From positions 25,501 through 89,500 of the forward strand of contig JAENZQ010000003.1 of assembly GCA_016841185.1 (NCBI GenBank): a stretch of DNA of 64,000 nucleotides, written 5' to 3'. Numbering within the stretch: position 1 is the first letter of the stretch; each line of letters opens with the position of its first letter. Under the pieces are notes generated by a model that did not search any database, had not been told where the DNA came from, and was given only the letters and a program-made list of their open reading frames with translations. Below, in pieces: positions 2,923 through 60,413 of this stretch. Source of the DNA: Anaerovorax odorimutans. GTDB taxonomy: Bacteria; Bacillota; Clostridia; Peptostreptococcales; JAAYPU01. The position numbers and the translations under genes are program-made.

Positions 2923-2958
2923 CGTTTTGTCTCCTTTCTGAATTTTTTTGTTTTGAGA

Positions 2959-3357: not shown

Positions 3358-3393
3358 TGTAATCCTCCTATAACTTAGAAATAATATAATAAG

Positions 3394-3813
3394 TTAAAAG
3401 CGTCTGCTGTCCAATTGTTCATATTTTGCAACATTTGCCCAAGCAGGCATTCGCTCGGTTGATCTTTTTATGTTCCTGACCACAATGGTCTCAACCGGTT
3501 TTTTCAAACTTGCAGCAACGGCTGCTGTAATGACTGCAACAAGCTCTTCATCTTCATTATCTTTATTAATGGTTTGTTGAGTCTTCTGAGGTTCAACCTG
3601 CGGTGTCATAATCTTCTCTTCAGATTGCTTCTGGGGTCTGTGCAGCATTCGTGTCATCACACCAATCAACCCCCAAAGTATTATCAATACCGCAAATGTA
3701 ATTGCCATACCCAAAATTGCAACAATTAATGAACCTAATAACTTTTCAGAAGTACTCATTTGCTGTATGAGTTCGGGATCCGCAAATCTTTGCATTAAGC
3801 CTAATTTTTCCAC
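3394..3813 (-). CDS. Small membrane-anchor subunit of the Na+ decarboxylase (OadG/MmdD-like)
   Basis: 139 aa with one TM helix (LLGSLIVAILGMAITFAVLIILWGLIGVM). The EELVAVITAAVAA segment is typical of OadG-like proteins. The gene lies between the alpha and BCCP genes. Confidence 0.65.
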   Translation of the reverse strand: MEKLGLMQRFADPELIQQMSTSEKLLGSLIVAILGMAITFAVLIILWGLIGVMTRMLHRPQKQSEEKIMTPQVEPQKTQQTINKDNEDEELVAVITAAVAASLKKPVETIVVRNIKRSTERMPAWANVAKYEQLDSRRF

Positions 3814-3845
3814 TTTATCACCTCATTTCCGGACTTCAAATCTAT

Positions 3846-5387
3846 TTAAAGTGGTATATTTCCATGCTTCTTAGCAGGTAACGACTGTCTTTTAGAGGCC
3901 AGCATATCAAAAGCACTGACCAGTCTTGGTCTTGTTGTACTTGGTTCTACAACATCATCCACATAGCCCATTTCAGCTGCTTTATATGGATTGGCAAACC
4001 GATTCTTATAATCTTCTATTTTTTCCTGACGTTTTGCAACAGGATCATCTGCATTTTTAATATCGTTTTTGAATACGATATTTGCAGCCCCTTCCGGCCC
4101 CATAACCGCAATTTCGGCTGTCGGCCATGCAAAAACCATATCTGCTCCTAATTCTTTATTGCACATACCGATATAAGCGCCTCCATATGCTTTTCTGGTT
4201 ATAAGTGTTACCTTAGGAACAGTTGCCTCACTGTAAGCATACAGCATTTTAGCTCCATGACGGATAATACCGCCGTATTCCTGACCGGTCCCCGGAAGGA
4301 ATCCGGGTACATCAACGATATTTAAAATTGGAATATTAAAAGCATCACACCTTCTGATAAATCTCGCTGCTTTATCAGATGCATCAATATCAAGGCATCC
4401 TGCCAACACTTTCGGCTGATTAGCAATAACCCCAACTGTCTGACCATTGAGTCTTATAAAACAAGTTACCATATTCTTTGCATAGTGTGGCTGAACATCG
4501 CAAAGTTCATTATTATCCGCCAGCTTATGAATCACATCATATACATCATATGGCTTATTAGGATTGTCCGGAATAAAGGTATCCAGTTCAGGGATCAATC
4601 TGTTCAAATCATCGTCCGTTCCGTAAGCAGGAGGTATTTCCATGTTGTTCGATGGAAGATAGCTTAAAAGATTTCTGATCTGAGCAATACAGTCTTCATC
4701 ATCTGAAGCCATAAAATGAGCAACCCCGCTGATAGAATTATGTGTCATTGCGCCTCCAAGCTGTTCAGCAGATACATCTTCTCCCGTTACCGTTTTAATG
4801 ACCTGCGGCCCAGTAATAAACATCTGGCTTGTCTTGTCCACCATAAAAACAAAATCTGTTATTGCCGGAGAATATACTGCTCCACCGGCACACGGACCCA
4901 TAATAGCCGAAATTTGAGGTATAACGCCTGATGATATTGTATTTCGATAGAATATTTTACCGAAACCCGATAAAGCATTGACGCCCTCCTGAATTCTTGC
5001 ACCACCGGAATCATTCAATCCTACAACAGGTGCTCCGACTTTCAAGGCGTTATCTTGAACTTTGACAATTTTTTCGGCATGGTATTCACCCAAAGAACCG
5101 CCAAGAACCGTAAAGTCCTGAGCAAATGCATAAACAAGTCTGTCATCTACCATTCCATATCCTGTTACAACGCCTTCTCCGGGGGCTTCCGTTTCTGCCA
5201 TATTGAAGTTGGTACTTCGATGAATTACAAAAGCATCCAGCTCTACAAATGTACCTGCATCAAACAATAAGTTGAGTCTTTCTCTTGCCGTAAGCTTCCC
5301 CTTTTCATGCTGTGCTTCAATTCTTTTGGCTCCCCCGCCTTTGAGTATTTTTTCTTTTCTCCGGCGAAGTTCTTCAATTTTGCTCAT
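3846..5387 (-). CDS. mmdA: Methylmalonyl-CoA decarboxylase alpha subunit / acyl-CoA carboxyltransferase
   Basis: 513 aa. It is collinear with the propionyl-CoA carboxylase beta / 12S transcarboxylase family (GGGAKRIEAQHEKGKLTARERL, NDSGGARIQEG, MGPCAGGAVYSPA). Substrate is inferred from family and length, not proven. Confidence 0.85.
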   Translation of the reverse strand: MSKIEELRRRKEKILKGGGAKRIEAQHEKGKLTARERLNLLFDAGTFVELDAFVIHRSTNFNMAETEAPGEGVVTGYGMVDDRLVYAFAQDFTVLGGSLGEYHAEKIVKVQDNALKVGAPVVGLNDSGGARIQEGVNALSGFGKIFYRNTISSGVIPQISAIMGPCAGGAVYSPAITDFVFMVDKTSQMFITGPQVIKTVTGEDVSAEQLGGAMTHNSISGVAHFMASDDEDCIAQIRNLLSYLPSNNMEIPPAYGTDDDLNRLIPELDTFIPDNPNKPYDVYDVIHKLADNNELCDVQPHYAKNMVTCFIRLNGQTVGVIANQPKVLAGCLDIDASDKAARFIRRCDAFNIPILNIVDVPGFLPGTGQEYGGIIRHGAKMLYAYSEATVPKVTLITRKAYGGAYIGMCNKELGADMVFAWPTAEIAVMGPEGAANIVFKNDIKNADDPVAKRQEKIEDYKNRFANPYKAAEMGYVDDVVEPSTTRPRLVSAFDMLASKRQSLPAKKHGNIPL

Positions 5388-5578
5388 TTTTTAACCTCCT
5401 AAAGAATCATATAAATCCTTATAATATTTAACCATTAAAACTATATTTCTCAATACCGGCGGTAAAAATACCTTAAGTCCTGAAAAATACAATTTTCTCC
5501 CTATTCTCGTTAATATTACAACATTATTTTTTTTTTTTCAATGCTATTTATTATGTATACATGATTTTTTATAATATT

Positions 5579-6136
5579 TTAAAATTCCTTCTTGTATTTG
5601 TTTCTTCCTGAGTCATAAATACATTCTCCAAAGGTATCAATTGCAACAACTACGGGAAAATCTTTTACCGATAACTTCCGGACTGCTTCTGTTCCTAAAT
5701 CATCATATGCAATGATTTCAATGCCTTTGATTGAATTTGAAATCATTGCGCCGGCACCTCCAATTGCTGCAAAATAAACCGCTTTGTTTCTTTTTATTCC
5801 TTCAATAACCTCCGGACTTCGGAGCCCTTTGCCTATCATGCCCCTTAATCCCTGATCAAGAAGCGGGAGGGTCATCTTATCCATCCTGCTGCTGGTTGTC
5901 GGCCCGAAAGAACCCGATATATTTCCCGGTCTTTCCGGCGTGGGACCTGCATAATAGATAATAGAATCCTTTAATTCAAAGGGAAGTGTTTTCTTTTGTC
6001 TGATGTTATCAATCATCCTTAAGTGGGCTGCATCTCTTGCGGTATAAAGTGTTCCGGATATCAGGACCATATCGCCGCATTTCAGATTTACGGCTCTTTT
6101 TTCCGTTAAAGGTGTGTCCAGTATTATCTTTTCCAT
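5579..6136 (-). CDS. Class I Fe-S hydro-lyase beta subunit (fumarate hydratase / tartrate dehydratase type)
   Basis: 185 aa. Motifs GTLYTARDAAH, GPTTSSRMD and GKG match the C-terminal domain of class I fumarase. It is paired with the alpha subunit gene upstream. Confidence 0.85.
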   Translation of the reverse strand: MEKIILDTPLTEKRAVNLKCGDMVLISGTLYTARDAAHLRMIDNIRQKKTLPFELKDSIIYYAGPTPERPGNISGSFGPTTSSRMDKMTLPLLDQGLRGMIGKGLRSPEVIEGIKRNKAVYFAAIGGAGAMISNSIKGIEIIAYDDLGTEAVRKLSVKDFPVVVAIDTFGECIYDSGRNKYKKEF

Positions 6137-6260
6137 TAAATCACTCCTTTATTATACAATTTAAGCATATTGTATACACGATTCTTAAAGAAATTTTAGA
6201 TTTGTATAGTCTATTTTTTATATTCGTAATCGTCATTTAAGATTTTTAATAAAACTTAAA

Positions 6261-6416
6261 GAAGTTAGGGGGTAGAGGTTAGTGGTTAGAAATGAACAGA
6301 AATTCTTGCCAAAGGCAAGAGTTTCTACCTTATTAAACTTACACTTTCACTTTCACTTATACCTTCACTTATACTTATACTTACACCTTCTCTTACACTT
6401 TCACTTACACTTATAT
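6261..6416. repeat. Composite intergenic element, copy 1, between the fumarase alpha and beta genes
   Basis: It has a C-poor module gaagttagggggtagaggttagtggttag, a hairpin at 6298-6326 (agaaattcttgcc aaa ggcaagagtttct), and a 95-nt G-free tract at 6322-6416 made of cttacac/cacttata words. It shares the 13-mer acttacacttata (6403-6415) with 15567-15579. Confidence 0.8.
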
Positions 6417-7253
6417 GACGCTCTCTCTATGCCTTGCCACATGGCAGTTTATATTGACGGCAACAGGGAGTCCTGCAATATGGGTAGGGTAGTATTCCAT
6501 ATGAACGGCCATTGCTGTGCAGCTTCCGCCGAAACCCTGGGGTCCAATGCCTGATGCATTGATTCTCCCGAGGATATCCTTTTCAATCTCGCCATATGTC
6601 TGATTGGGATTCCGTTCCCCTAAAGGCCTGAGTAAAGCCTTTTTCGATAAAATTGCAGCCTTCTCCATTGTTCCGCCTACGCCGACGCCTACAATAACAG
6701 GAGGACATGGGTTAGGCCCTGCATCAGAGACCGTATCCACAACAAATTTAACAATACCCTCTTTTCCGTCAGACGGGTTCAGCATTTTGATCTTCCCCAT
6801 ATTCTCGCTGCCAAATCCTTTTGCCATTGCAGATATTTTTATCCGATTTCCGGGTACGATTTCATAATGGATGACTGCAGGTGTATTATCTTTTGTATTG
6901 ACACGTTCTAAAGGCTCTTTCACAACAGATTTTCTCAGATAGCCTTCCTGATATGCTTCCCTCACCCCTTGATTAACAGCCTCTTCAATAAACATATCTG
7001 TTAATGCTACCTCTTGACCAATTTGAAGGAATACAACGGCCATGCCCGTATCCTGACAAATGGGTATCTGTTTTTCTTTTGCTATGGCCAGATTATCAAG
7101 CAAATTTTCAAGGACTTCCCGGCCAATGGGGGATTCTTCTATTTCCCTTGTTTTATTAAGAAAGGCTTCCACATCATTTCCTAATTCATGGTTCATTTCT
7201 ATAAACATCTTTTTTATTTTTTCTTTGATCAATAAAGTACTGACTTCTCTCAT
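6411..7253 (-). CDS. Class I Fe-S hydro-lyase alpha subunit (fumarate hydratase type)
   Basis: 280 aa. CQDTG and the other Cys ligands are typical of the N-terminal domain of class I fumarases. Confidence 0.85.
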   Translation of the reverse strand: MREVSTLLIKEKIKKMFIEMNHELGNDVEAFLNKTREIEESPIGREVLENLLDNLAIAKEKQIPICQDTGMAVVFLQIGQEVALTDMFIEEAVNQGVREAYQEGYLRKSVVKEPLERVNTKDNTPAVIHYEIVPGNRIKISAMAKGFGSENMGKIKMLNPSDGKEGIVKFVVDTVSDAGPNPCPPVIVGVGVGGTMEKAAILSKKALLRPLGERNPNQTYGEIEKDILGRINASGIGPQGFGGSCTAMAVHMEYYPTHIAGLPVAVNINCHVARHRESVI

Positions 7254-24431: not shown

Positions 24432-24690
24432 AAAAAAAAGCTCTTCGTATCATAGAGACGAAAAGCTTCGTGTTACCACTCTTTTTTGCATAAATCTCAC
24501 GATTTATGCCTCATTAGGTTAATTGAACCATATAATACTAACGGATATTACCCGCCATATCCTAAATTCTTCGGATACAGAGCTCCAGGGCCATCTTCAA
24601 CATATTCAACGTATCGGCTTTCATCCGTTTACCGACTCTCTGTAACGTCTTTTATGCCTACTCTTCCCTTCATCGCCAGACTTTTTTATT
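24432..24690 (-). promoter_or_regulatory. T-box riboswitch leader (Met-specific) of metG
   Basis: The minus strand shows an AGAGAG bulge motif, then GAAtATG as a candidate specifier region (AUG). The T-box sequence AGAGTGGTAACACGAAGC lies at plus 24465-24482. A terminator (aagcttttcg ... cgaagagctt plus U8) lies at plus 24432-24468. Confidence 0.8.
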
Positions 24691-46384: not shown

Positions 46385-47452
46385 ATGTTTGATAAACTTG
46401 ATTTTATACAGGAAAAATATGATACATTGAGTATGAAAGTATCCGATCCGGAAATCATTGCAAATCAAAGCATCTGGCAAAAATATGTCAAGGAACTATC
46501 CGATATTGAAGATATCGTCCTTAAATATAAAGAATACCGGAAATTAAAAAATGAAATTGACGAAACAAAGCTATTATTGGAGGACAGTAATGATTCAGAA
46601 CTCAGGGAAATGGCTAAATCCGAACTTAATGACTTGGAAGAAAAGATTTCCCATGTTCAGGAAGAACTTAAAATGCTCCTTATCCCCAAAGATCCTAATG
46701 ATGATAAGAATGTCATTATAGAAATACGTGCGGGAGCAGGAGGAGATGAGGCAGGCCTTTTCGGAAGCGATCTTTTGAGAATGTATATGCGATATGCCGA
46801 AAGACGAAGGTGGAAAACAGAAATGCTTGAGATGAATGAAACCGGTGTAGGCGGCATCAAAGAAGCCATTGTCCTGATAAAAGGAAAAGGCGCCTATTCC
46901 AGACTTAAATACGAAAGCGGCGTGCATAGGGTCCAAAGGATACCAACAACGGAATCCGGCGGCAGGATTCACACCTCAACAGCAACAGTAGCCGTACTGC
47001 CGGAAGTAGATGATGTTGAAATCGACATCAACCCCAATGAAGTAAGGGTCGATGTTTATCGGTCATCGGGAAATGGCGGCCAGAGTGTTAATACCACAGA
47101 TTCAGCCGTACGATTAACGCACATACCAACAGGAATTGTCGTCACCTGTCAGGATGAAAAATCTCAATTAAAAAACAAAGAACGAGCTTTTAAGGTTCTG
47201 AGAGCCAGGCTTTATGATATCAAACTGCAGGAACAGAATAAGGAAATTGCGGCTGAAAGAAAAAATCAGGTGGGCACAGGAGATCGGAGTGAAAGAATCC
47301 GAACCTATAATTTCCCACAGGGAAGAGTGTCCGACCATCGAATTAATCTGACCATTTACAAGTTGGATTACTTCCTTGATGGGGATATCGACGAAATAGT
47401 AGATGCGCTCATCACATCCTCTCAGACAGAAAAATTACAGGAAGCACAATAA
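46385..47452 (+). CDS. prfA: Peptide chain release factor 1
   Basis: 355 aa with the GGQ motif [16 protein letters not shown]. The RF1 tripeptide region is read as PTTES, which is tentative. Confidence 0.95.
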
Positions 47453-47460
47453 TATAAGCT

Positions 47461-47588
47461 CGGGTGTCAGGGCAAGAGGAATTAGAAAAAAATAAGAGAT
47501 AGATAACAGATAATAATGAAGGAAAGAAATTATGACAAGTCATAATTTCTAACCATAACCTTTATCTCTTATTTGTTATCTTTTATCT
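47461..47588. repeat. Composite intergenic element, copy 11, between prfA and the giant gene
   Basis: The left arm is aataagagatagataacagataataatgaagga. A hairpin at 47525-47550 (agaaattatgac / gtcataatttct) follows. The right arm is aaccataacctttatctcttatttgttatcttttatc, and the arms are imperfectly complementary. Confidence 0.8.
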
Positions 47589-47620
47589 AAACCAGTAATG
47601 TTAATAAGTTTGAGGTGGAT

Positions 47621-50600
47621 ATGGTGAATAGAGATGTCTTAATCGGTATACAGAAAAAATTGATCAACACTTTCAGGGATAAAGCTTTTTTAGAAAGAAT
47701 TCTCCTAAAAGAAGAAGATTTGCTTCCGTTTATTGAAAGTACTGCATTTATTGTAGAACTTTCAATTTTATATGAAAAAGAAAAGCGTACCTGCCAGGAT
47801 ATTTTAAACCTATGCAAGCTTGTTTTTATAAAAGTTTTTGAGAATGAACCCAAACAAGGCTGGCTGAATTGCGCTTATCAGTACACTTTAAAAAAATCCT
47901 TTCCCCATCTTAATATTACGACTGAGAAGCAATACGAAGCACCTGTCATTGTTTTTCTGCAATTCTTAAAAACATTTCTGGAAGCCGACAGAACAAGTCA
48001 GAAAGAAGATCCGGAAAAATCTTTTTTGATATTGGATCTGTTATCCAAGGAAGAAATAAAAAAGCTGTATAATCCAATGGAATATCGAAGCTTTTTGAAA
48101 GCTTTTAATAACCTTTATATTTGTGAAATGATGCGTTTGCATCAGGAAATTACAAATCATAATATTTTTGACCATATTTGTGCCGTACACTTTGTTGCAG
48201 TTAATATTGGACGGCAGCTGAACAAAGCCGGCATACCTGTCGACCTTGGCCGGGTTTCCGGTGCTGCAGCGGGGCATGATATCGGAAAATTTGCATGTAC
48301 CGGCGAAGAAATTAAACGGATTCCTTATTTACATTATTACTATACGGATTTATGGTTCAAAAATAACAATATTCCGCATATCGGCCATGTTGCCATTAAT
48401 CATTCTACTTGGGATTTGGAACTGGAAAACCTTCCTTTGGAATCATTGATTCTGATTTATGCTGATTTTCGAGCAAAAAACGAACACAGCAAAGGTCAGA
48501 AGAACATGAAAATTTATTCCCTTGCACAGGCTTTTGACATTATTTTAGAAAAATTGGATGATGTCAATGAAGCAAAAGCAAACCGTTATAAAAAAGTATA
48601 TAATAAGCTCTATGACTTCGAAAGCTATCTGAAGTACCTTGGAATCAATGTGGATATGCTGTCTGAAGAAAAACTCACGCCCTCATATAAAAACTGCACT
48701 TTGATGAACGGCAAAGAAATTGTTGAAAATTTAAAATACAAAGCGATCGAACACAATATCTATCTGATGTTTAAGCTAAGAAGTGAAACAGCGCTGACTT
48801 CCATGATAGAAGTAGCTAAAAGCAGAAACAGTTCCAATATTTTAAGAAGCAATTTAAATATCCTGAGTGAATATTCCACATACTTTACTCAGAAGCAAAA
48901 ACTCATTACTCTAAATTATCTGTTTGATCTTCTGGTTCACCATGAAGAAGATATAAGAAAAAAAGCATCCGAACTTATAGGTATTATTATTGGTATTTTT
49001 GATGAGGAATATAGAAAAGAAGTCCCTGAAAATTCATCCTTAGAGGTGCCTGTAGTCACCAGTCTGCAGCTCTTTGAAAAATATATCGAAGCAATGGTTC
49101 ATCCGGACCATAAAATCATGGATACCCATAAAGAAAGACTTGGATACGGTCTTAGGACTTATATTGAATCCTTTTTTAAAAAGTGCAAAAAATCTTTAAT
49201 TCCTGATTACAGGAATATTATGGTTCAATATTTGATTAATACGCCGAAAGAAGATCCGGATACTCAAATCAATCTTCTGCAGGCAGTTAAATTCATTCCC
49301 TGGGAAGGTTCTAATCTTAGAACTGTTAATATTCTTGCAGATATTCTCTTAGATGCATTAAAGAATGAAAACAGTGATATACGCCTGATTTCTATGGACA
49401 GGATTAATCTGCTTTTAGACATTTTTCCCTATAGTTCTTTTAAAGCTAAGATTACTGAGGCTTTAAATACTTTTTATCGTTCCTCACCCAACCTGACTGA
49501 AAAATATATAAGGTGCAGGATATTACGAAAGCTGGACTTATGTGAGAAAGAAGAAGACTGGTTTCAGGAATGCTTTATCAACAGAAATGAACGGTTATCC
49601 GATATATATTTAAGAAATCTGAAAAGCGGAACAAGCTGGATCTCCAAAAAATATCATATTGAATTGATGCTGGACCATTCAAATTATGCATCCCAAAGTG
49701 ATGCATTATACACAGCCATGCATTTTTGCAACCTTATAAAAGTCAGTTCCAAGGAAAACGTAAGAATCAATGCCGGTAAGGCACTTTTAAAAATTATCGA
49801 GCATCTTTCTTTAGAACAGCGGAATGACATTTCTGTTGAATTACTCAGAGCTTTGGAAATCGAAAGTTTTGAGCACGGGGCTTATATTCCCGAATATCTC
49901 GGTCAGGTGTTTTTATACTTAGGTCCGGGTGAATTGGATGAGCAGATTACCGAATTATATACAAAGATGAAACGTATGAGCAATCAGACCGTATTTCTTG
50001 TTTTACATACCATTGAAATTGCCATCGAGCATTATTTCGGATATCAGAAAAAAACGGATGAACCGGATGAAAACTTTTTATTCAGGTTGGAACGCATGCT
50101 TGGAATTTTATTGATTGGCTGTTCCAATTATGACGATGAAATCAAACAGGAAGCCTTTACCGTTATCGGAAATATTTTTGCATCCGATAAGCTAAGCCTT
50201 GAAGAGAAACAAACCATTTTTAATATTATAGCCAAAAAAACCCTGGTACTCCTGACAGAAAAAGAAGTAAACGAATTCCTGTTTATTAATAACGCTGCTT
50301 CCTTAAACCATATTTACCGTTTTGTTTCAGATTATTCCCACAAGTACGGAAATATTTATGTGTCCGTACCGGAAAAAATCGCTTTTTTCCCGGGTACTTT
50401 TGACCCCTTTTCATTAAGCCATAAAAAAATAGCTGTAGAAATAAGAAATCTGGGATATGAGGTTTATTTAGCGGTAGACGAATTCTCTTGGTCCAAATCA
50501 ACTCAACCACATCTAAAAAGACAAAAAGTTATCAGTATGTCTATTGCTGATGAACGAAATATATTTTTGTTTCCTGAAGAGATTCCTGTAAACATCGCCA

Positions 50601-52507
50601 ACCCCTCCGACATGAAAAAGCTTAAAAGCACTTTTGATTATAAAGAAGTTTACGTTGCAGTAGGAAACGATGTGGTTGTTAATGCTTCTGCCTACAAAAA
50701 AAAGCCTTGTGAAGATTCTATCCATCATTTTCCTCATATCATCTTTAAAAGAGAGTACGGAGAGCATGAAAAATACAATCAGAGTGAGTATAGAAAAGCC
50801 CTGCAGCAATTGACAGGAGATATTATAGAGCTGCAGCTGGGTAAACAATTTGATATGATTCGTTCTTCGCTAATCCGGCAGTGCATCGACGAGAACCGCG
50901 ACATCAGCAACCTTATTGATCCTTTGTCTCAGCAATATATATATGAATATGGCCTTTATTTAAAAGAACCTCAATATAAAATTCTGGTTGAAAATCATTC
51001 CATATCTTTAAAACATTTTAAAAAAGCTAATAAACAGCTGATCGAATCACTTACGGACAAGTTGTTTTTTGGAAATAAAAATCAGCAACATACCATCAAT
51101 CAATTGATCAAAAGTAAAAATGCAGAATTAATCGTGTTATATGATACAAGTTACGGGCTCAATATTTCAGGGTGTGCTATATTCCACAGAGTCAACTCCA
51201 GTACCCTTTACAGTGAATTTAAAAATAATTATGTTTCTGAACATATAAGGCATCATTCCATAGGCAGAATGATCGTAATCGACGGTATCTTTACTCACAA
51301 TGATGCTCCGGACAATTCCGAGCAGATGATTCTGAGTGAAACACTCTCTTATTGTTTGTCAGAAGACTATACTTATGCAATTTTTAAACCTGCATTTGTA
51401 ACTGAAAATCTGAACAAGGTTTGTTCCGTTTTTAAGCTGCAGGGTTTTGAAGAAATATTACAAGACGCCTCTATCCCCGTTCTGGATGTGGATATGTCAA
51501 AGCCTTGCATTCTGAATCTTGATTTGCTTACATTTATAAAAGAACCTTTCAGAAGCAATGAGAAGATCATTCATGCCGTTAAAAAATCAAGAGCAAAGCT
51601 TCAAAAAGCACTTGCGGATCTGTTCCCGGGAAATCTTGTTATTTCCTTTGAGAGAGAAGCTTTATATCAAACTCTTATAGAAAAAGTCTGCTCCACCAAT
51701 AACGTACCCATGAAATCCGTATCGCCGCAACATCTGGGACCATATATGTGTGTCCCCTTCGGTCAGATTTTAAAAGGCCATATGGTGCCAAATACGGTGA
51801 CGAAATCTCTTCATACGGAAAAAATATATAATTCCAAGGTGTCAGATTTTTATATCGGTCCGTATCCCCAATATCTGAATCTGGAAACACAAATAAAAAC
51901 CATTCACTCTTTTAATCGGCCGGTTATTTTACTGGATGATATTTTAAATAAGGGATATCGTATTAAAGCTTTGAATCCTCTTCTTAAACAAGAAAATATC
52001 GAAGTGAAAAAAATTATTGTCGGTATACTATCTTCCAGAGGAAAAGAGCTCATGGATATTCAGGGACGGGAAATAGATTCTGCTTATTATATACCAAATC
52101 TCAAGAACTGGTTTACGGAAGCCACCATGTATCCCTTTATAGGAGGAGATTCCGTTTCAAGAGGCTCTGCACCTGTAAAATATCTTATTCCGTCTATTAA
52201 CCTGATTTTCCCATATGCTTCTCCGTCCTTTATACGAGGAGCTTCCCTGGAATCTTTGTTCCGGTTATCACAAGTATGCATCGAAAATACAATGAATATA
52301 TTTAAAGTATTAGAAAAGGAATATCAGTTTACACAAGAAAAAAGCCTTACATTAGGCCATCTGGGTGAGGTTATTGTTTTTCCAAGATATCCGGATAAAG
52401 GAGATGGCATCCTATATGACTATAACCAGAAAGCATCTTCCTATCTGGCAGATGACCTGGAACATTTATTCCGGCTTCAGCCTTTATCCTCAAATTTGTT
52501 GAAGTAA
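47621..52507 (+). CDS. Giant multidomain protein: N-terminal region, HDIG phosphohydrolase, long helical-repeat (HEAT-like) region, NadD/cytidylyltransferase-like domain, possible GNAT-like region, PRTase-like C-terminal domain
   Basis: Continuous ORF of 1628 aa from the ATG at 47621, which follows a GAGGTGG RBS.
- HD motif: HICAVH...AAGHDIGK...IYADFRA, about aa 185-300
- NTase motifs: FFPGTFDPFSLSH and MIRSSLIR, about aa 925-1110 (compare NadD GTFDPxHxGH and ISSTxIR)
- PRPP-loop-like motif: RPVILLDDILNKGYR, about aa 1470. Confidence 0.8.
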   Translation: MVNRDVLIGIQKKLINTFRDKAFLERILLKEEDLLPFIESTAFIVELSILYEKEKRTCQDILNLCKLVFIKVFENEPKQGWLNCAYQYTLKKSFPHLNITTEKQYEAPVIVFLQFLKTFLEADRTSQKEDPEKSFLILDLLSKEEIKKLYNPMEYRSFLKAFNNLYICEMMRLHQEITNHNIFDHICAVHFVAVNIGRQLNKAGIPVDLGRVSGAAAGHDIGKFACTGEEIKRIPYLHYYYTDLWFKNNNIPHIGHVAINHSTWDLELENLPLESLILIYADFRAKNEHSKGQKNMKIYSLAQAFDIILEKLDDVNEAKANRYKKVYNKLYDFESYLKYLGINVDMLSEEKLTPSYKNCTLMNGKEIVENLKYKAIEHNIYLMFKLRSETALTSMIEVAKSRNSSNILRSNLNILSEYSTYFTQKQKLITLNYLFDLLVHHEEDIRKKASELIGIIIGIFDEEYRKEVPENSSLEVPVVTSLQLFEKYIEAMVHPDHKIMDTHKERLGYGLRTYIESFFKKCKKSLIPDYRNIMVQYLINTPKEDPDTQINLLQAVKFIPWEGSNLRTVNILADILLDALKNENSDIRLISMDRINLLLDIFPYSSFKAKITEALNTFYRSSPNLTEKYIRCRILRKLDLCEKEEDWFQECFINRNERLSDIYLRNLKSGTSWISKKYHIELMLDHSNYASQSDALYTAMHFCNLIKVSSKENVRINAGKALLKIIEHLSLEQRNDISVELLRALEIESFEHGAYIPEYLGQVFLYLGPGELDEQITELYTKMKRMSNQTVFLVLHTIEIAIEHYFGYQKKTDEPDENFLFRLERMLGILLIGCSNYDDEIKQEAFTVIGNIFASDKLSLEEKQTIFNIIAKKTLVLLTEKEVNEFLFINNAASLNHIYRFVSDYSHKYGNIYVSVPEKIAFFPGTFDPFSLSHKKIAVEIRNLGYEVYLAVDEFSWSKSTQPHLKRQKVISMSIADERNIFLFPEEIPVNIANPSDMKKLKSTFDYKEVYVAVGNDVVVNASAYKKKPCEDSIHHFPHIIFKREYGEHEKYNQSEYRKALQQLTGDIIELQLGKQFDMIRSSLIRQCIDENRDISNLIDPLSQQYIYEYGLYLKEPQYKILVENHSISLKHFKKANKQLIESLTDKLFFGNKNQQHTINQLIKSKNAELIVLYDTSYGLNISGCAIFHRVNSSTLYSEFKNNYVSEHIRHHSIGRMIVIDGIFTHNDAPDNSEQMILSETLSYCLSEDYTYAIFKPAFVTENLNKVCSVFKLQGFEEILQDASIPVLDVDMSKPCILNLDLLTFIKEPFRSNEKIIHAVKKSRAKLQKALADLFPGNLVISFEREALYQTLIEKVCSTNNVPMKSVSPQHLGPYMCVPFGQILKGHMVPNTVTKSLHTEKIYNSKVSDFYIGPYPQYLNLETQIKTIHSFNRPVILLDDILNKGYRIKALNPLLKQENIEVKKIIVGILSSRGKELMDIQGREIDSAYYIPNLKNWFTEATMYPFIGGDSVSRGSAPVKYLIPSINLIFPYASPSFIRGASLESLFRLSQVCIENTMNIFKVLEKEYQFTQEKSLTLGHLGEVIVFPRYPDKGDGILYDYNQKASSYLADDLEHLFRLQPLSSNLLK

Positions 52508-52544
52508 TTTGATCTCAAGATATACAAACATGAAAGGAAATGCA

Positions 52545-53783
52545 ATGTTTTACTACTATAAATATAAAGATAAGGTTTTGTTTTCCCTCAAAGAATATCG
52601 CGGTTTTGTGAGCATCAATGAAGAAATGGCAAAAGAGCATGGCGATACTATGTATTTCCTTGGAAAACTGCCACCGATGAAATCCCGTATGTCTTTTACC
52701 CTGTCAGATTCCGATATGTTTTACCTTGAAAAAGAATCCTTGGATTTACTAAATTCCCCTGATGTAAAGAAGCCTGTCATGTCTTGGCTTTCAGAAAGAA
52801 TAAATAACCGTCAGATAGTCTATATTAATACGGAATATGAACATTGGAAATGCGCATTGGAAAAAGCACCGCCAAAAAAATGGAAGATTCACATTATTGC
52901 TTTGGGAGATATCGGAAGTACCCTATTAACAGGTTTAAGAGTACTTGGAAGTGAGCACATCGACGAAATAGGTATTTATGACAGGAAAATGAACAATGTA
53001 AAAAGATGGGAATTTGAAATGAATCAGACAATGCCTCCTTTTAAGTATCAATTCCTGCCGGAGGTGAAACTGATTAACGAAAACCGGCTCATGACCTGTG
53101 ATATCCTGATATTCTGCGCTGCAAAGGGATATGTTTTGGATAATACGATTTCTGATGTACGAATGGCACAATTTCAGCAGAATTCCAACATTATCTCAAC
53201 CTATGCAAAGAAAGCACGTTCCGCCGGATTTAAAGGAATTTTTGCCATTTTATCCGACCCTGTTGATTTATTATGTAAAAAAGTGCTTCTGGAAAGTAAT
53301 TATACCTCCGATGGTTGCCTTGACTGCAAAGGATTGGCTCCCGAGCAAATCCGGGGTTTTGGTTTGGGTGTCATGAATTCAAGAGCAGTCTATTATGCAA
53401 AAAAATTTACAAAATTCCGGCACTATATAGAAGAAGGCAGAGCCTTTGGCCCTCACGGTTCAGGACTGGTCATTGCCGATAGTATAGAGCATTATAACGA
53501 TGATTTGTCCATTGAGCTTACCGACCTTGCTGTAAAAGCAAACCTTAAAATGCGTGAATTGGGATTTAAGCCTTATGTGGCGCCGGCCTTATCCTCCGGC
53601 ACCTATTCTATATTAGCCATGATCTCCGGACAATGGCATTATTCTTCTACTTTCTTAGGCGGTGTCTACATGGGTTCCAATAATCGTCTTGTTAACGGGT
53701 ATACGGAATTAGAGCGATTAATGCTGCCTGATAAGCTCATGAAGCGCCTAAGGACTTCTTATGACGGATTAAGCATTTTATAA
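52545..53783 (+). CDS. Lactate/malate dehydrogenase-family Rossmann protein with a ~110-120 aa N-terminal extension
   Basis: KIHIIALGDIGSTL...IGIYDRK (dinucleotide fold), CDILIFCAAKG, ILSDPVDLL and FGPHGSG align with the LDH motifs GAGxVG...D, ADxVVxTAG, TNPVD and GEHGDS. The start is ambiguous: ATG at 52545 with an AGGA RBS, ATG at 52530, or TTG at 52509. Confidence 0.65.
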   Translation: MFYYYKYKDKVLFSLKEYRGFVSINEEMAKEHGDTMYFLGKLPPMKSRMSFTLSDSDMFYLEKESLDLLNSPDVKKPVMSWLSERINNRQIVYINTEYEHWKCALEKAPPKKWKIHIIALGDIGSTLLTGLRVLGSEHIDEIGIYDRKMNNVKRWEFEMNQTMPPFKYQFLPEVKLINENRLMTCDILIFCAAKGYVLDNTISDVRMAQFQQNSNIISTYAKKARSAGFKGIFAILSDPVDLLCKKVLLESNYTSDGCLDCKGLAPEQIRGFGLGVMNSRAVYYAKKFTKFRHYIEEGRAFGPHGSGLVIADSIEHYNDDLSIELTDLAVKANLKMRELGFKPYVAPALSSGTYSILAMISGQWHYSSTFLGGVYMGSNNRLVNGYTELERLMLPDKLMKRLRTSYDGLSIL

Positions 53784-53877
53784 GTTTTCTTGTAAATGTA
53801 TATACAAAAATAGACTTGCTGCCTTATAAATGAAAAGGTGCTGATTTCAACAGGCAGGATTTAAAAGGGTGGTGCAA

Positions 53878-54930
53878 ATGTCTGAATCATTATATGTAAT
53901 ATCAGGAGGAAAACCTTCTTCGTTGCTTAAAGAAATGACAGTTTCGGTTTCCAAGTATTTTGAAGAGGTTGTTGAAGCCGGTCGTGAGTCACTTCCTGAT
54001 TTGAGCAATAAAAAAATCCTTTTTTCCGTTCAATTGAATCAGGCAGGCTTCTGCCCGGAGATGGATGCTGTTTTATTTTCATTATGGGACAAGGGGCATA
54101 AATCTCTTGCAGGATCATCAGCTATCGTACTGATCCATTGTGATTCTGAACTCTTTACTAAAACATACTGTCAAAATCTTATATATCATGCCAATATGAT
54201 GGGCTGCTCTTTTATGGGCCGCCCCTTTGTAGAAGCAGCAGGAAATTTGTATAACCTGGCAGTAGCTCAAAAAACAATAAAAAAACCTTTAATGGATGTC
54301 TGCTTTGCTTTATGCGAAAACTTAGCCAAAAGATTTAAAAGCTACTCTCCCCGGCTTATTGAAAATCCAAGGATTTGTGTACTCCATTCAAGCAATTTCG
54401 AGACTTCTAATACCTTGATGCTTTGGAATATGGTTGCTGAGTATTTAATGCCTTGTATTCCTAAGGTGCTGCACATTGAAAACGGCACGGTAAAAGATTG
54501 TATCGGATGTTCCTATATAACATGCAAGCATTACGGGGAGAGTCAATCCTGTTTTTATGGCGGTGTCATGGTTGAAGAAGTATATCCTTCGATTCTCGAA
54601 GCCGATGCCCTTATTTTTTTATGCCCCAATTATAACGATGCCTTGTCAGCTAATATTTCTGCTGTCATCAATCGGTTAACCGCTTTGTTCCGGAAAACTA
54701 AATTTTACAACAAATCGGTTTTTGGTATAATAGTATCAGGCAATTCAGGCTCGGATGCCTTAGGAAAACAGCTTATCAGCGCTTTGAACATGAATAAAAC
54801 CTTCCGGCTACCGCCTTATTTTTCTTTGTGTGCCAATGCAAACGATCCCGGTGCAATACTCAAAGTACCCGGAATAGAAGAATGCGCAAAGGCTTTCGCC
54901 GAAAATATAAAGAAAGAAATCAAAAAATAA
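53878..54930 (+). CDS. Flavodoxin-fold NADPH-dependent FMN reductase / iron-sulfur-flavoprotein-like protein with a ~165 aa N-terminal domain of unknown function
   Basis: The C-terminal half reads RICVLHSSNFETSNT...CIGCSYITCKHYGESQSCFYGG...ILEADALIFLCPNYNDALSANISAVINRL. This matches the ISF/FMN_red pattern (GSxRxxxNT...CxGCxxC...C...ADxxIxxSPxY). The start is the ATG at 53878 after GGGTGG. Confidence 0.65.
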   Translation: MSESLYVISGGKPSSLLKEMTVSVSKYFEEVVEAGRESLPDLSNKKILFSVQLNQAGFCPEMDAVLFSLWDKGHKSLAGSSAIVLIHCDSELFTKTYCQNLIYHANMMGCSFMGRPFVEAAGNLYNLAVAQKTIKKPLMDVCFALCENLAKRFKSYSPRLIENPRICVLHSSNFETSNTLMLWNMVAEYLMPCIPKVLHIENGTVKDCIGCSYITCKHYGESQSCFYGGVMVEEVYPSILEADALIFLCPNYNDALSANISAVINRLTALFRKTKFYNKSVFGIIVSGNSGSDALGKQLISALNMNKTFRLPPYFSLCANANDPGAILKVPGIEECAKAFAENIKKEIKK

Positions 54931-54994
54931 AAATAGAAAATCGATATAAAAATGTGTGTATTGATTATTATATTATTATACCGGTTCATATTCA

Positions 54995-55003
54995 TGCTAT
55001 AAT
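54995..55003 (+). promoter_or_regulatory. Candidate extended -10 promoter (TGcTATAAT) for DUF1385-prmC
   Basis: TGCTATAAT lies at 54995-55003, 52 nt before the ATG. There is no convincing -35 element. Confidence 0.3.
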
Positions 55004-55054
55004 TGATAAAACCCAAGCGATTCGGGCACGGAGACCCAACCCTACAAAATTTAA

Positions 55055-56023
55055 ATGGAGGATATCAATTTGGACTTTGATAAAATATTCAGAAAGGATG
55101 CAAATCCTACGAAAATAGGAGGACAGGCCGTAATAGAAGGCGTTATGATGAAAGGCTCCTCCTGTATGGCGACATCCGTAAGAAAACCGAATGGAGAAAT
55201 AACCCTTAAAGTGGATAAAATAAAACCATTGGGAAAAATTGCAAAACTACCTGTCATCAGAGGTATCTATGCCTTTGGAAGCGCTTTAGTCACCGGAACC
55301 AAGACATTGATGTATTCTGCGGAAGTTCTGGAGGAAGCCGGCGTATATATGGAAAAAAGTAAATTTGATCTGTGGATTGAAAAAAAATTAGGGGATCATG
55401 CTACCACCTTTTTATTATATTTTTCCGTAGTGATCGCATTGATTTTCACCATTGGAATATTTGTCATTCTCCCTACCATTGCCGTTAATTTTTTTTCGCG
55501 CTTTACCGAAAATACGATTCTTCTTAATCTTTATGAAGGAGTTTTGAGGATTGTTATGTTCGTCGTCTATGTTGCTGTGATTTCCAGACTGGAAGATATC
55601 CGGCGAGTTTTCCAATATCATGGCGCCGAACATAAATCCATTCACTGCTATGAAAGCGGTCTGGATCTCACTGTGGAAAACTGCAAACCTTTTCCGGTAC
55701 TTCATCCCAGATGCGGAACCAGCTTTATGATGTTTGTTCTGGTCATTAGTCTGCTGCTTTTTTCTCTTTTAGGATGGCCGAATCTTTTGGTACGGATCAC
55801 ATCACGGCTTTTATTCATCCCCCTGATCGCCGGTTTATCCTATGAATTACTGCGGTGGGCAGGAAAGAGCAGTTCTTCTCTGGTAAAGATCATCAGTTTA
55901 CCGGGTCTGTGGCTTCAAATGCTTACCACGAAGGAACCGGATGCTTCTCAGATCGAAACGGCATTGTCCTCGCTTAAAGCCGTTTTAGATTATTCGGAAG
56001 GCAATGAAGATCTATGGAATTAA
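55055..56023 (+). CDS. DUF1385 (YqhQ-like) membrane protein
   Basis: 322 aa. IGGQAVIEGVMMKG and HGAEHK are DUF1385 hallmarks. This gene is the conserved partner upstream of prmC in Clostridia. Confidence 0.85.
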   Translation: MEDINLDFDKIFRKDANPTKIGGQAVIEGVMMKGSSCMATSVRKPNGEITLKVDKIKPLGKIAKLPVIRGIYAFGSALVTGTKTLMYSAEVLEEAGVYMEKSKFDLWIEKKLGDHATTFLLYFSVVIALIFTIGIFVILPTIAVNFFSRFTENTILLNLYEGVLRIVMFVVYVAVISRLEDIRRVFQYHGAEHKSIHCYESGLDLTVENCKPFPVLHPRCGTSFMMFVLVISLLLFSLLGWPNLLVRITSRLLFIPLIAGLSYELLRWAGKSSSSLVKIISLPGLWLQMLTTKEPDASQIETALSSLKAVLDYSEGNEDLWN

Positions 56024-56877
56024 AAATCAAATCGGTCTTGAAATATGCCGCTTCTCTGCTTAGAGAAAGCGGCTGTTTGTCTCCTCAGCTTGATGCAGAA
56101 CTCCTTTTGGCCTTTCTTCTGCATAAGGAAAGAAGCTATCTGTTTATGTACCCTGAAAAAGAAATACCTCTTTCAGTCTATCATCATTATCTTGCTCTAA
56201 TAGAAAAACGAAAAAAAGGAAAGCCTGTTGCGTATATAACAGGAAATCAGGAATTTATGAAGCTTGATTTTTTTGTAAATGAAAGTGTGCTGATTCCCAG
56301 GCCGGATACTGAAATACTGATTGAAAAGATAATAGAAACCGTGAAAGGAAACCCCCAAAGTATTCGTATTTTAGATCTTGGATGCGGAAGCGGTGCCATA
56401 TCGGTAAGCTTGGCCTGTTATCTACCTGATGCTTTTGTTTGTAGTACGGATATAAGCCCTGAGGCCATACGAATTGCACAGATAAACGCCTCAAATCATA
56501 ATGTCAATAATCAAGTTACCTTTTTATGCGGAGATTTATTCGCTCCCGTAAAGAACAAATTCGATATCATTGTATCCAACCCCCCTTATATCCCAACCAA
56601 GGACATTGACACACTACAGGCCGAAGTCTCAAATCATGAACCTCGAAAAGCATTGGACGGCGGTGAGGATGGCCTTGAATTTTACAGACGGATTATTTCT
56701 GAAGCGCCTGAATATATAAAAAACACCGGCTACCTCTTCCTTGAAATCGGATATGACCAGGCCCGGGATATCTCGTCTTTGCTTGCTGAAAGGAAAAAAT
56801 ATTCAAATATTGAGATTTTTAAAGATTTAGCGGGAAGAAACAGGGTTGTAAAGGCAGAGATTAAATCTAAAGTGTAG
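56014..56877 (+). CDS. prmC: Release factor glutamine N5-methyltransferase
   Basis: 287 aa with SAM motif LDLGCGSGAI and catalytic NPPY (VSNPPYI). It overlaps DUF1385 by 10 nt. Confidence 0.9.
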   Translation: MELKIKSVLKYAASLLRESGCLSPQLDAELLLAFLLHKERSYLFMYPEKEIPLSVYHHYLALIEKRKKGKPVAYITGNQEFMKLDFFVNESVLIPRPDTEILIEKIIETVKGNPQSIRILDLGCGSGAISVSLACYLPDAFVCSTDISPEAIRIAQINASNHNVNNQVTFLCGDLFAPVKNKFDIIVSNPPYIPTKDIDTLQAEVSNHEPRKALDGGEDGLEFYRRIISEAPEYIKNTGYLFLEIGYDQARDISSLLAERKKYSNIEIFKDLAGRNRVVKAEIKSKV

Positions 56878-56878
56878 G

Positions 56879-57115
56879 CTTATGATTTAAGGTTTAAGAT
56901 TTATGATTGGAGATTGGTGGTAGAAATTTTGATGATCATCAAAATTTCTGCCCATAATTATTCATTGTTCCATTATTAATTGTAAACAAGTGTCGGAGGT
57001 AAGAGTATTTAAGATTTAAGTTGAGCTTTGTCCCAAAGCCTTCAACTTGTCATCGCGAGGAGCGATAGCGACGCACCTTTTTGACCCAAGCTTGTCTTGG
57101 CAAGGCAAAACAGTA
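56879..57115. repeat. Composite intergenic element, copy 12, between prmC and rpmE (convergent)
   Basis: Module order:
- cttatgatttaaggtttaagatttatgattggagattggtgg
- a perfect 28-nt palindrome at 56922-56949 (agaaattttgatga|tcatcaaaatttct)
- gtcatcgcgaggagcgatagcgac
- cttgtcttggcaaggc. Confidence 0.8.
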
Positions 57116-57121
57116 AAGGTA

Positions 57122-57150
57122 AAAAATCGGAGAGTAACTCTCCGATTTTT
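57122..57150. terminator. Bidirectional Rho-independent terminator shared by rpmE and prmC
   Basis: aaaaatcggagag taa ctctccgattttt forms a 13-bp stem. T-runs follow on both strands (tttttggttttttt on plus, ttttt on minus). It lies 8 nt after the rpmE stop. Confidence 0.8.
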
Positions 57151-59297: not shown

Positions 59298-60413
59298 TTA
59301 ATCCTGAATCTGCATTTCAATAATTTTGATACCATCACAAGTATACTCAACTTCCATATTCAAAGTCAAGTAAATCATGCTTTTTTTATTGTTGTTTTCA
59401 TCATATATCTCTGAATTGTCATCCAATATATATGAAACCTCGTCTCCCCTTCTTCTTTCAATGGTGATTTTGTAAATATTATCTGTTATCTGACGCATTT
59501 CGGAGATTGTCCCGTCATATACATCTTCTTCTGTCCAAATAAGTAACTGTTCATCATCCACCTCATTGTTATAAGCAATCATTGCTTTCGTACCGTCTTT
59601 GAGCTCCCTGATAGAGCTGTCTTTTCCATTGATGATTATTCCCGCTTCTTCAGAAATTATAAGTGTGTACTGAATCCCTGAGGTATCTTCAAAGAAAAGA
59701 GTATTGCCTCTGACTTCTTTAATAGTCCCATTGAAGGTGTTCCCTTCTTTTTCTATATCCGGTTCCCGGCTGTTCCCAAGATAATACAATCTTGAACATA
59801 CTGCAGCAAACTCAGCACGGGTGATGGTATTATACGGCCGGAATTCATTATGATCATCCCCGATCATAATCTGATGCCGGTACATAAGATCGATATAGGG
59901 AGTTGCTTCTTCATCGATAGCTTCCCTGTCGTTATAAGGCAGAGCATATAAGGGGGATATTTCTTTATCCACAGCCTTTGCAGCCCAAACCGCAACTTCC
60001 TGTCTGTTTGCAGGAGTCCCTATCTCATTGCTGACAAACCCGATCAGGTCTTCTTCCTCGATAATATCATATTCCAAAGCATAAGCCACGTAAGGGCGGG
60101 CCCATTGGGCTATGCCGTAAGCATTCATAGGCTCAATATATGCATCCGTAAAGTTATCACTGTTTTCTAAAACTCCTGCCGCATTTAGAGACCTGTAGAT
60201 CATGGCCAGGGACTGCTCTTTTGTAACCGGACTGGAAGGTAGAAAAGTTCCGTCCGGGAAACCATTTATAATGCCCTTATCTGCCGTAAATTCTATATAG
60301 CTATATGCCCAGTGCCCAGCTGTGTCTGTGAATTTGACACCGGCATAGGATAAGGTTGATAGTGCCAGAAAAGCTATGATTATAAACACTAATACTTTAT
60401 TGCTTTTTCTCAT
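59298..60413 (-). CDS. Secreted protein with three N-terminal SLH (S-layer homology) domains
   Basis: 371 aa with a signal peptide (VLVFIIIAFLALSTLSYA). SLH motifs are FTDTAGHWAYSYIEFTADKGIINGFPDGTFLP..., a second region, and a third ending RPYNTITRAEFAAV. Confidence 0.8.
   Translation of the reverse strand: MRKSNKVLVFIIIAFLALSTLSYAGVKFTDTAGHWAYSYIEFTADKGIINGFPDGTFLPSSPVTKEQSLAMIYRSLNAAGVLENSDNFTDAYIEPMNAYGIAQWARPYVAYALEYDIIEEEDLIGFVSNEIGTPANRQEVAVWAAKAVDKEISPLYALPYNDREAIDEEATPYIDLMYRHQIMIGDDHNEFRPYNTITRAEFAAVCSRLYYLGNSREPDIEKEGNTFNGTIKEVRGNTLFFEDTSGIQYTLIISEEAGIIINGKDSSIRELKDGTKAMIAYNNEVDDEQLLIWTEEDVYDGTISEMRQITDNIYKITIERRRGDEVSYILDDNSEIYDENNNKKSMIYLTLNMEVEYTCDGIKIIEMQIQD

Follow-up and report, generated by a model that had tools for sequence, protein, structure and literature searches.

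We describe here a three-gene cassette that lies in a 64,000-nt stretch of DNA from Anaerovorax odorimutans (contig JAENZQ010000003.1, positions 25,501 to 89,500; hereafter the window, to which all coordinates refer unless a related locus is named). The cassette is headed by a gene for a five-domain protein of 1628 amino acids (aa), which we label BIG (47621..52507, plus strand). It continues on the same strand with genes for an NAD-binding dehydrogenase of the lactate dehydrogenase/malate dehydrogenase (LDH/MDH) superfamily (partner 1, 52545..53783) and for a two-domain flavoprotein (partner 2, 53878..54930). With about 1630 aa, three potential active sites, two dedicated redox partners and a near-constant length across hundreds of species of anaerobes, the BIG family marks a considerable gap in what is known of nucleotide and cofactor metabolism in these organisms.

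The open reading frame (ORF) of BIG is unbroken from an ATG at 47621 to the stop codon at 52505-52507, as the initial annotation of this DNA had stated, and its translation is 100% identical to a public protein (P0001). The mechanical ORF list puts the start further 5', at a GTG at 47615; we place it at ATG 47621 because this codon is preceded by a GAGGTGG ribosome-binding site and gives exactly the 1628-aa length of P0001. The motifs HICAVH, GHDIGK, ADFRA, FSLSH, IRSSLIR and VILLDDILNKGYR are all found in the translation.

Homologues of BIG fall into more than 4190 clusters at E ≤ 1e-5, and relatives are encoded in at least 493 species-level genomes. The best 120 homologues are 1620-1650 aa long at 44-88% identity, and the ORF is unbroken in every related locus long enough to contain the whole gene. 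Given this number of clusters and species, the near-constant length and the intact frames, BIG is not a chance reading frame; it is a real gene of a large family. Since all of the best 120 homologues keep this length, every part of the protein appears to be required.

The family is found in part of the Clostridia and in one clade of Atribacterota, its carriers being gut Lachnospirales, amino-acid-fermenting Clostridia and subsurface Atribacterota. A neighbor-joining tree of BIG tracks taxonomy, with clades for Lachnospirales, Sedimentibacter/Tissierellia, Alkaliphilus and Clostridium, and the Atribacterota sequences form a single clade nested among those of Clostridia. This nesting suggests mostly vertical inheritance plus one old transfer.

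In public records, BIG relatives are named 'nicotinate-nucleotide adenylyltransferase', 'cytidyltransferase' or NadD. A search of the PDB with the single BIG sequence gave no match, and a profile search of the PDB found no relative beyond single-domain NadD matches. Pfam and NCBIfam scans returned no model specific to the family, and the literature, searched for the architecture and for the names it has in databases, yielded no paper on it. The earlier statement that no characterized protein with this architecture was known agrees with these searches.

The domains of BIG

From its N terminus, BIG consists of a helical region, an HD domain, a HEAT-like solenoid of about 550 aa, a NadD-class nucleotidyltransferase, a GNAT fold and a phosphoribosyltransferase (PRT) fold that resembles uracil phosphoribosyltransferase (UPRT). 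The five-part architecture first proposed from the sequence is thereby supported in all of its domain calls, that of the HD domain least firmly. Each of the folds is already known; what is new is their assembly, the variants of their motifs and the cassette in which they occur. The protein was modelled by AlphaFold2 in two parts, aa 1-915 and aa 900-1628, with an alignment of 44 homologues for each; pLDDT and pTM are 87.8 and 0.87 for the first part and 85.4 and 0.84 for the second. With pTM values this high, the domains are predicted to pack rigidly. Pfam counts given below for the family refer to a survey of 30 BIG members, and residue invariance, unless stated otherwise, to a set spanning 41-89% identity to the window protein.

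The N-terminal region (aa 1-130, 47621..48010, plus strand, as for all domains of BIG) is all-helical, with helices predicted at high pLDDT between aa 4 and 127, and it has no match in Pfam or NCBIfam.

The HD-type metal phosphohydrolase domain follows at aa ~175-290 (48143..48490). When aa 125-345 are scanned alone, Pfam HD (PF01966) is the top match in six of eight members. In the window protein, the match covers model positions 2-111 of 116 and scores 17.4 bits (E 0.0057) against a gathering score of 22, which one other member reaches with 22.3 bits; across the survey, the model is found at E ≤ 1 in 16 of the 30 members. The H...HD...H...D metal-ligand pattern of HD phosphohydrolases is kept, H185, H219-D220 (within GHDIGK), H261 and D282 being invariant in 30 sequences with 44-68% identity to the window protein. 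The best PDB profile match to the region has an E-value of 0.067. Foldseek searches with the N-terminal AlphaFold2 model surfaced no HD structure among the matches listed from the PDB, where solenoid proteins fill the list, and no HD fold among viral structures, where the only matches were weak ones to repeat proteins. The HD call of the initial annotation therefore stands at the level of weak sequence similarity combined with invariant metal-ligand residues.

The HEAT/ARM-like alpha-solenoid occupies aa ~360-910 (48698..50350) and is formed, in the AlphaFold2 model, of the paired helices expected of HEAT and ARM repeats. The top 50 Foldseek matches of the N-terminal half in the PDB are all helical-repeat solenoid proteins, mostly of the HEAT/ARM type, and include CAND1, Kap121, PP2A-A and SF3B1 (E ~1e-5, probability 1.00). 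Pfam HEAT matches 24 of the 30 members, with a best E-value of 1.2e-5. The helical repeats noticed earlier are thus HEAT-like, and they extend over about 550 aa.

The nucleotidyltransferase domain (aa 918-1115, 50372..50965) belongs to the NadD/NMNAT class of HIGH-type enzymes, as had been proposed. Pfam CTP_transf_like (PF01467) matches the window protein at E 5.6e-6, with 27 bits against a cut-off of 21, and is found in all 30 members surveyed. The top 30 Foldseek matches of the C-terminal half are all NadD/NMNAT structures, with E-values down to 7.7e-8 and target TM-scores of 0.63-0.78. The closest sequence in the PDB is the uncharacterized NadD-like protein VPA0413 (3h05), whose motif is PPSLGH.

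The first ATP motif lies in GTFDPFSLSH, and its FSLSH part had been read as a degenerate form of (H/T)xGH. We do not find this to be the case: nearly all 50%-identity representatives of the family carry [ST]x[GSA]H, most commonly as SLGH, SLSH or TLSH, and FSLSH is a common form of this family-wide motif. Ser takes the place of Thr or His at the first position, and throughout the main family the motif ends in an invariant His. Pantetheine-phosphate adenylyltransferase and the eukaryotic NMNATs have Thr at the position of this Ser. The second ATP motif, ISSTxxR, was correctly recognized as kept; its family consensus is ISSTQIR, and the subclade of the window has IRSSLIR. Invariant residues of the domain are G925, F927, D928, P929, H934, K935, Y1025, S1082 and R1086. 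In the PDB profile alignment, Y1025 pairs with a Trp of Enterococcus faecium NadD, which we take to be the residue that stacks on the pyridine ring.

The domain therefore shares with NadD/NMNAT proteins the fold, the GxFxPx(S/T)xxH and ISSTxIR-type motifs and an aromatic residue aligned to the NadD Trp. It differs from them in its taxonomic restriction, in its position between the HEAT solenoid and the GNAT fold of a 1628-aa protein and in its scores, since no NCBIfam model for NadD exceeds 34 bits against equivalog cut-offs of 112-197 (TIGR00482, 34 bits against 112; NF000840, 26.8 bits against 150). Fusions of an NMNAT-class domain to other nucleotide-handling domains are familiar from NadR and NadM-Nudix, and CitC combines a GNAT-like with a HIGH-type adenylylating domain in one protein. 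These proteins differ from BIG in their partner domains and domain order, and no match of BIG to their families was reported by Pfam or NCBIfam.

A GNAT-like segment had been suggested as possible, and a GNAT fold is indeed found at aa ~1128-1300 (51002..51520). Foldseek matches it to GCN5 (5trm), NatD (4u9w) and AtaT (7chd) at E ~1e-4, and the order of strands and helices in the AlphaFold2 model agrees with GNAT topology. The acetyl-CoA pyrophosphate loop Q/RxxGxG/A was not found in this fold: the beta4-alpha3 loop (aa 1226-1232) is variable both in sequence and in length, and it contains no Gly-rich motif. Likewise, Pfam scans of BIG and of the 30 members reported no acetyltransferase match. 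As the loop is missing, we reject a standard acetyl-CoA enzyme; the fold is probably a binding or structural module and not an acetyl-CoA-dependent acetyltransferase. A phmmer search of 1.84 billion representatives with the GNAT-PRT module gave 395 matches and found essentially no relatives outside the BIG family; the 150 best listed matches are either full-length members or shorter proteins, of which many are probably fragments.

The C-terminal part (aa ~1335-1628, 51623..52504) comprises a type-I PRT fold followed by C-terminal helices, and carries the motifs PNTVTKSLHTEK, VILLDDILNKGYR, AYYIPNL and YPFIGGD. Its best Foldseek matches among PRT structures are of the UPRT type (2e55, E 7.5e-5; 6wn8, E 1.1e-4). 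Pfam Pribosyltran matches 14 of the 30 members and is sub-threshold in the window protein, and weak profile matches to APRT, ShosT (E 0.0012) and Upp coincide on the same stretch. Alignment of BIG with the window's own Upp by hhalign (E 0.027) places DDxxNKGYR on DPMLATGGS, VILVDDLLNKGYR on an 11-residue stretch of Upp and AYFIPNL on AYIVPGLGD; the order of motifs, a hairpin, YY, hhhhDD and AY(F/I)(I/V)P, is common to the two proteins.

In VILLDDILNKGYR, the hydrophobic run and the acidic pair DD of the phosphoribosyl pyrophosphate (PRPP) motif are kept and T-G-x-T is replaced by K-G-Y-R, and hence the canonical PRPP motif is not present. This is a property of the family: among the 102 representatives in which the motif was detected, DD occurs in 98 and GxR in 100, mostly as KGxR. 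The earlier call of a type-I PRT-like fold with an atypical PRPP loop was therefore sound, and can be narrowed to a UPRT-like one. BIG resembles UPRTs in its best structural matches and its acidic pair, but differs from them and from other type-I PRTs in having KGxR instead of TGxT or ATGGS as the phosphate loop, and in the replacement of the positions aligned to PGLGD.

Redox partners, gene context and divergent branches

We compared the gene context of BIG in 80 related loci and the window (81 in total), counting a locus as informative where enough downstream sequence was available. The co-occurrence of BIG with the two genes downstream of it, raised in the initial annotation, is strongly confirmed. 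The LDH-like gene directly follows BIG on the same strand in 74 of 81 loci (74/77 informative), and an FMN_red gene follows the LDH-like gene in 70 of 81 (70/73 informative). No other gene family is common to more than 13 loci. Junctions within the cassette are mostly -4 to +20 nt, and the gene upstream of BIG is usually divergent or distant. BIG thus heads an autonomous, translationally coupled three-gene cassette. One metagenome-assembled genome, JBMOKU01, has two copies of BIG on different contigs (L044 and L058), of which one is accompanied by both partners and the other by neither.

A search for a Rex box or a shared upstream motif found only sigma-A-type -10 boxes, and an Rfam search of the whole window and six related loci found no riboswitch or leader upstream of the cassette. 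PADLOC matched the cassette to no known defence system; the weak ShosT match on the PRT stretch was its only result, and the partners gave none.

Partner 1 probably starts at ATG 52545, the mechanical ORF beginning at TTG 52509. Pfam Ldh_1_N is found in all 28 members examined, and PDB profile matches are to LDH, MDH and 2-hydroxyisocaproate dehydrogenase (HicDH) structures (E 2e-9). Conserved motifs are GLGDxG, IYD, DVR, SDPVD, GVMxxRA and GPHG. Even the most divergent cassettes retain DVR, GVMxxRA and the His motif, which reads GTHG or GPHN instead of GPHG in two branches. With LDH, MDH and HicDH, partner 1 shares the Rossmann GxGxxG motif and an Asp that follows beta-2 (IYD), as in NAD-dependent enzymes. 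In the PDB profile alignments, its DVR motif places Arg on the Arg of the LDH segment ETRLD, which we take to be Arg109; the invariant Arg of GVMxxRA and the invariant His of GPHG would correspond to LDH Arg171 and His195, as judged from motif similarity and from match boundaries that span the region.

Partner 1 nevertheless differs from these enzymes in several respects. Only its N-terminal half aligns confidently, motif comparison shows other residues in place of LDH Asp168 (Asn/His/Phe) and Asn140 (Asp), and it has its own extra N-terminal domain of about 110 aa. It also falls far short of the LDH/MDH equivalog cut-offs (TIGR01771, 27 bits against 303). The length of partner 1 is 364-430 aa beside BIG proteins that carry the HD domain and 306-349 aa, without the extension, beside those that do not. 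This co-variation of the extension with the HD module hints that the two are in physical contact.

Partner 2 probably starts at ATG 53878, the mechanical ORF beginning at GTG 53869. Its C-terminal domain matches FMN_red (E 2.9e-17; 26 of 26 members) and contains an invariant C-x2-C-x4-C-x8-C; weak matches to the FeS family PF04060 were seen in four of the 26. The N-terminal domain of about 165 aa has no family match, and a sequence search of the PDB with partner 2 gave none either. Iron-sulfur flavoproteins (Isf) bind FMN and a [4Fe-4S] cluster, the latter on the compact Cys motif CX2CX2CX5-7C (PMC3164229). Partner 2 resembles the Isf of anaerobes in its FMN_red fold with a compact four-Cys motif inserted near the start of the domain, and differs from it in the spacing of the Cys residues and in the extra N-terminal domain.

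The LDH-like gene still adjoins distant homologues of BIG. Two of these form deep branches at full length. At 30% identity, P0259 keeps the HD motif and is followed by the LDH-like gene and then by a peptidase-U32 gene in place of FMN_red (L087/L088, 11117-13607); at 26% identity, P0267 also keeps the HD motif and has only the LDH-like gene downstream. Variants without the HD domain are 1050-1310 aa long and form two groups. Those of group A (P0162, P0192, P0213) keep the LDH-like partner, without its N-terminal extension, and FMN_red comes next in P0162 and P0192; the contig of P0213 ends within the third gene. As the LDH-like gene adjoins both homologues of 26-30% identity and the HD-less group A, BIG and the LDH-like protein are an ancient pair. 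At one group A locus (L086, 11884-15801), the cassette is followed by a gene for a 976-aa activase-type protein with BcrAD_BadFG and DUF2229 and by a second DUF2229 gene.

Group B (P0243, P0226, P0230) has neither partner. Its BIG relatives measure 1065-1259 aa, and the gene of an 860-aa protein of the PPDK_N (ATP-grasp dikinase) type lies upstream of each and overlaps it (L081-L083, 3426-9198; L085, 3-5377; L092, 1-4140), which makes group B a second type of cassette on the same core of HEAT solenoid, nucleotidyltransferase and PRT fold. The HD domain and, in some variants, also the GNAT domain are therefore optional modules. In P0243, as in the HD-less P0210, P0228, P0245 and P0255, the nucleotidyltransferase has Asp where the main family has His. 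The natural variants of the family thus include proteins that lack the HD domain and ones beside which PPDK_N takes the place of both partners.

Candidate functions

The reading that we favor, tentatively and with less than even confidence, is that BIG and the two oxidoreductases assemble on the HEAT scaffold into one multi-enzyme complex, in which they would act together to make and turn over a small molecule derived from a nucleotide. The PRT-like domain would form or hold a ribonucleotide; as its base, a pyrimidine is hinted at by the likeness of the domain to UPRT and by the context of some BIG genes, and a pyridine is equally allowed. The NadD-like domain would adenylylate the ribonucleotide to a dinucleotide-type product, and the HD domain would hydrolyze a phosphoester or pyrophosphate bond as an opposing or editing step. 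With NAD(H) and FMN/Fe-S electrons, the partners may carry out the oxidation or reduction of a group resembling a 2-oxo or 2-hydroxy acid, either on the substrate or on a co-substrate.

A more specific version, which we regard as possible though doubtful, is that the cassette encodes a new pathway of strict anaerobes that builds a dinucleotide-type cofactor or metabolite and recycles it through the HD domain. Such a pathway would lead from a base to a ribonucleotide by the UPRT-like domain and on to a dinucleotide by the NadD-like domain, with redox tailoring by the HEAT-docked partners.

The initial annotation suggested, more broadly, that the protein serves to synthesize, salvage or sense a molecule that is NAD-like or otherwise derived from a nucleotide, and this is plausible. 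The contextual hints, which are weak, point to pyrimidines at least as much as to pyridines, and nothing singles out NAD. In a complete Clostridiaceae genome (L010, 274-12190), a partner-less BIG gene directly follows pyrB-pyrK-pyrD-carA-carB with an 11-nt overlap. At two loci of the Anaerotignum type (L077 and L079, ~2600-7100), the cassette is immediately preceded by carA-carB. L012, L045 and L051 have pyr or car genes no more than about 5 kb away from BIG, and in the window the distance between BIG and upp is 5 kb. Taken with the UPRT-like domain and the U32 neighbor, these contexts lean weakly to pyrimidine or cofactor chemistry, the loci being few and related.

Several points weigh against a catalytic complex. 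The pyrimidine context is found in only about seven of the 81 loci, which are not phylogenetically independent, and the immediate neighbors of the cassette have no overall functional theme. The sequence scores for the HD and PRT domains of the window protein lie under the curated Pfam thresholds. The 5'-phosphate loop of PRT enzymes (TGxT/ATGGS) is replaced by KGYR, and the positions aligned to the PGLGD motif of the window's Upp, a motif that we take to lie in the uracil-binding region, are changed in BIG; for these two reasons the PRT-like domain may bind rather than catalyze. The GNAT fold lacks the CoA loop. One HD-less subgroup combines the His-to-Asp change in the nucleotidyltransferase with a decayed ISST motif, so that this subgroup, at least, can dispense with catalysis. 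What we observe is the identity of the domains, the conservation of residues and the linkage of the genes, and it is from these that we infer the chemistry; the activity, the ligand and the complex of BIG are accordingly put forward as proposals.

The changes in the PRT-like domain and the missing CoA loop also speak for the main rival, a ligand-sensing scaffold, which we consider unlikely but the strongest competitor. Here the NadD-, GNAT- and PRT-like domains would be pseudo-enzymes that bind ATP, NAD-type dinucleotides or PRPP and, through the HEAT solenoid, control the partners or other proteins, in the manner of PyrR and PurR, PRT-fold proteins that act as sensors of nucleotides and PRPP. 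Such a role would suit group B, which lacks the HD domain, is kept despite the His-to-Asp change and loss of ISST and pairs with the PPDK_N protein, and a HEAT solenoid of about 550 aa argues for contacts with other proteins. In the main family, however, the HD residues, including the metal ligands, and the catalytic-type residues of the nucleotidyltransferase are all invariant, which a pure sensor would not need, and the PRPP motif likewise retains its two acidic residues.

These intact HD and nucleotidyltransferase motifs on one rigid polypeptide could also be explained by a synthetase-hydrolase of a signal nucleotide, an explanation to which we assign a low probability. The nucleotidyltransferase would make a dinucleotide or dinucleoside-polyphosphate signal, the HD domain would degrade it, and the PRT- and GNAT-like domains would act as regulatory sensors. 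SpoT/Rel, GlnD and the nadD-yqeK gene pair follow the same make/break logic, and the CCA-adding enzymes likewise join an HD to a nucleotidyltransferase domain, a combination that suggests opposing activities. The HD domain of BIG behaves as a separable module that is missing from some subfamilies, and the cassette is preceded by promoter-like -10 boxes of its own but by no metabolite riboswitch that we could find. In GlnD, Rel and the CCA enzymes, however, the nucleotidyltransferase is of the pol-beta class, unlike the HIGH/Rossmann class of BIG, and HIGH-type nucleotidyltransferases are not known to serve as signal synthetases. BIG differs from these HD systems also in the strong divergence of its HD domain and in having no ACT or TGS sensor domains. 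Furthermore, a signal nucleotide would leave the obligatory LDH-like and flavoprotein partners unexplained, and no receptor or effector gene is conserved nearby.

Still less probable is an enzyme that modifies macromolecules, with the HEAT solenoid holding an RNA or a protein, for example a component of translation, that the other domains would nucleotidylate, ribosylate or acylate. HEAT repeats typically bind macromolecules, the GNAT matches include the tRNA-acetylating toxin AtaT, and in the window the cassette sits inside a translation-factor cluster, between prfA (46385-47452) and DUF1385-prmC (55055-56877), all in one plus-strand block (46385-56877). In addition, the peptidase-U32 gene adjoins the BIG/LDH-like pair in one deep branch, and characterized members of the U32 family are tied to the prephenate-dependent C5 hydroxylation of pyrimidines in RNA (PMC6599085). 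The neighborhood of prfA, DUF1385 and prmC occurs in none of the 80 related loci, however, and this placement of the cassette is therefore organism-specific; we reject a functional link to prfA and prmC, which neighbor the cassette in the window only. NadD-class enzymes, moreover, act on small molecules, and the GNAT fold has no CoA site.

An ordinary NadD with extra domains, as the public names and the best single-domain similarity would have it, is very improbable, and we reject a plain NadD identity, given that the equivalog thresholds are missed by a wide margin, that the NadD-like part makes up only about 12% of BIG and that the family is limited to part of the Clostridia and Atribacterota, whereas NadD is universal.

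What had been a single odd ORF is now a defined three-gene system with catalytic residues that can be tested. If the HEAT-scaffolded complex that we favor is enzymatic, a new dinucleotide or cofactor may be its product; if BIG is a sensor, it would be an unusually elaborate recruitment of enzyme folds for regulation.

Other features around the cassette

A Pfam scan of 112 immediate neighbors of the cassette revealed no functional theme; the most frequent families, FAA hydrolase (nine), glutamate dehydrogenase (six) and RlmN (six), are all lineage-specific. At L050, the genes ahead of BIG form a cluster that includes panB and encodes a DUF2520 Rossmann-type protein as well as an APH-family kinase. 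At L002 (12269-17472), about 5 kb separate BIG from its partners; judged by the ORF translations, this stretch seems to hold genes for an ammonium transporter and three split genes for glutamate-synthase-like subunits, and we regard it as an unrelated insertion.

A scan of the window found no terminator-like site from prfA to the hairpins at 56919-56952 and 57122-57150, downstream of prmC. The 168-nt gap between prfA and BIG contains an AT-rich perfect inverted repeat, GAAATTATGAC..GTCATAATTTC (47526-47549, plus strand), which is not a typical terminator, as no T run follows it.

Elsewhere in the window, a 371-aa ORF (59298-60413, minus strand) has as its sole match a weak one to a NEAT/leucine-rich-repeat model (E 6e-7), far under the cut-off. 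The sole Rfam family in the window is a T-box leader (RF00230, 119 bits) at 24451-24682 on the minus strand, unrelated to the cassette. A group II intron and a cobalamin riboswitch at related loci (L045, 17314-19181, and L039, 2950-3129, both on the minus strand) lie kilobases from the cassette and are likewise unrelated to it.

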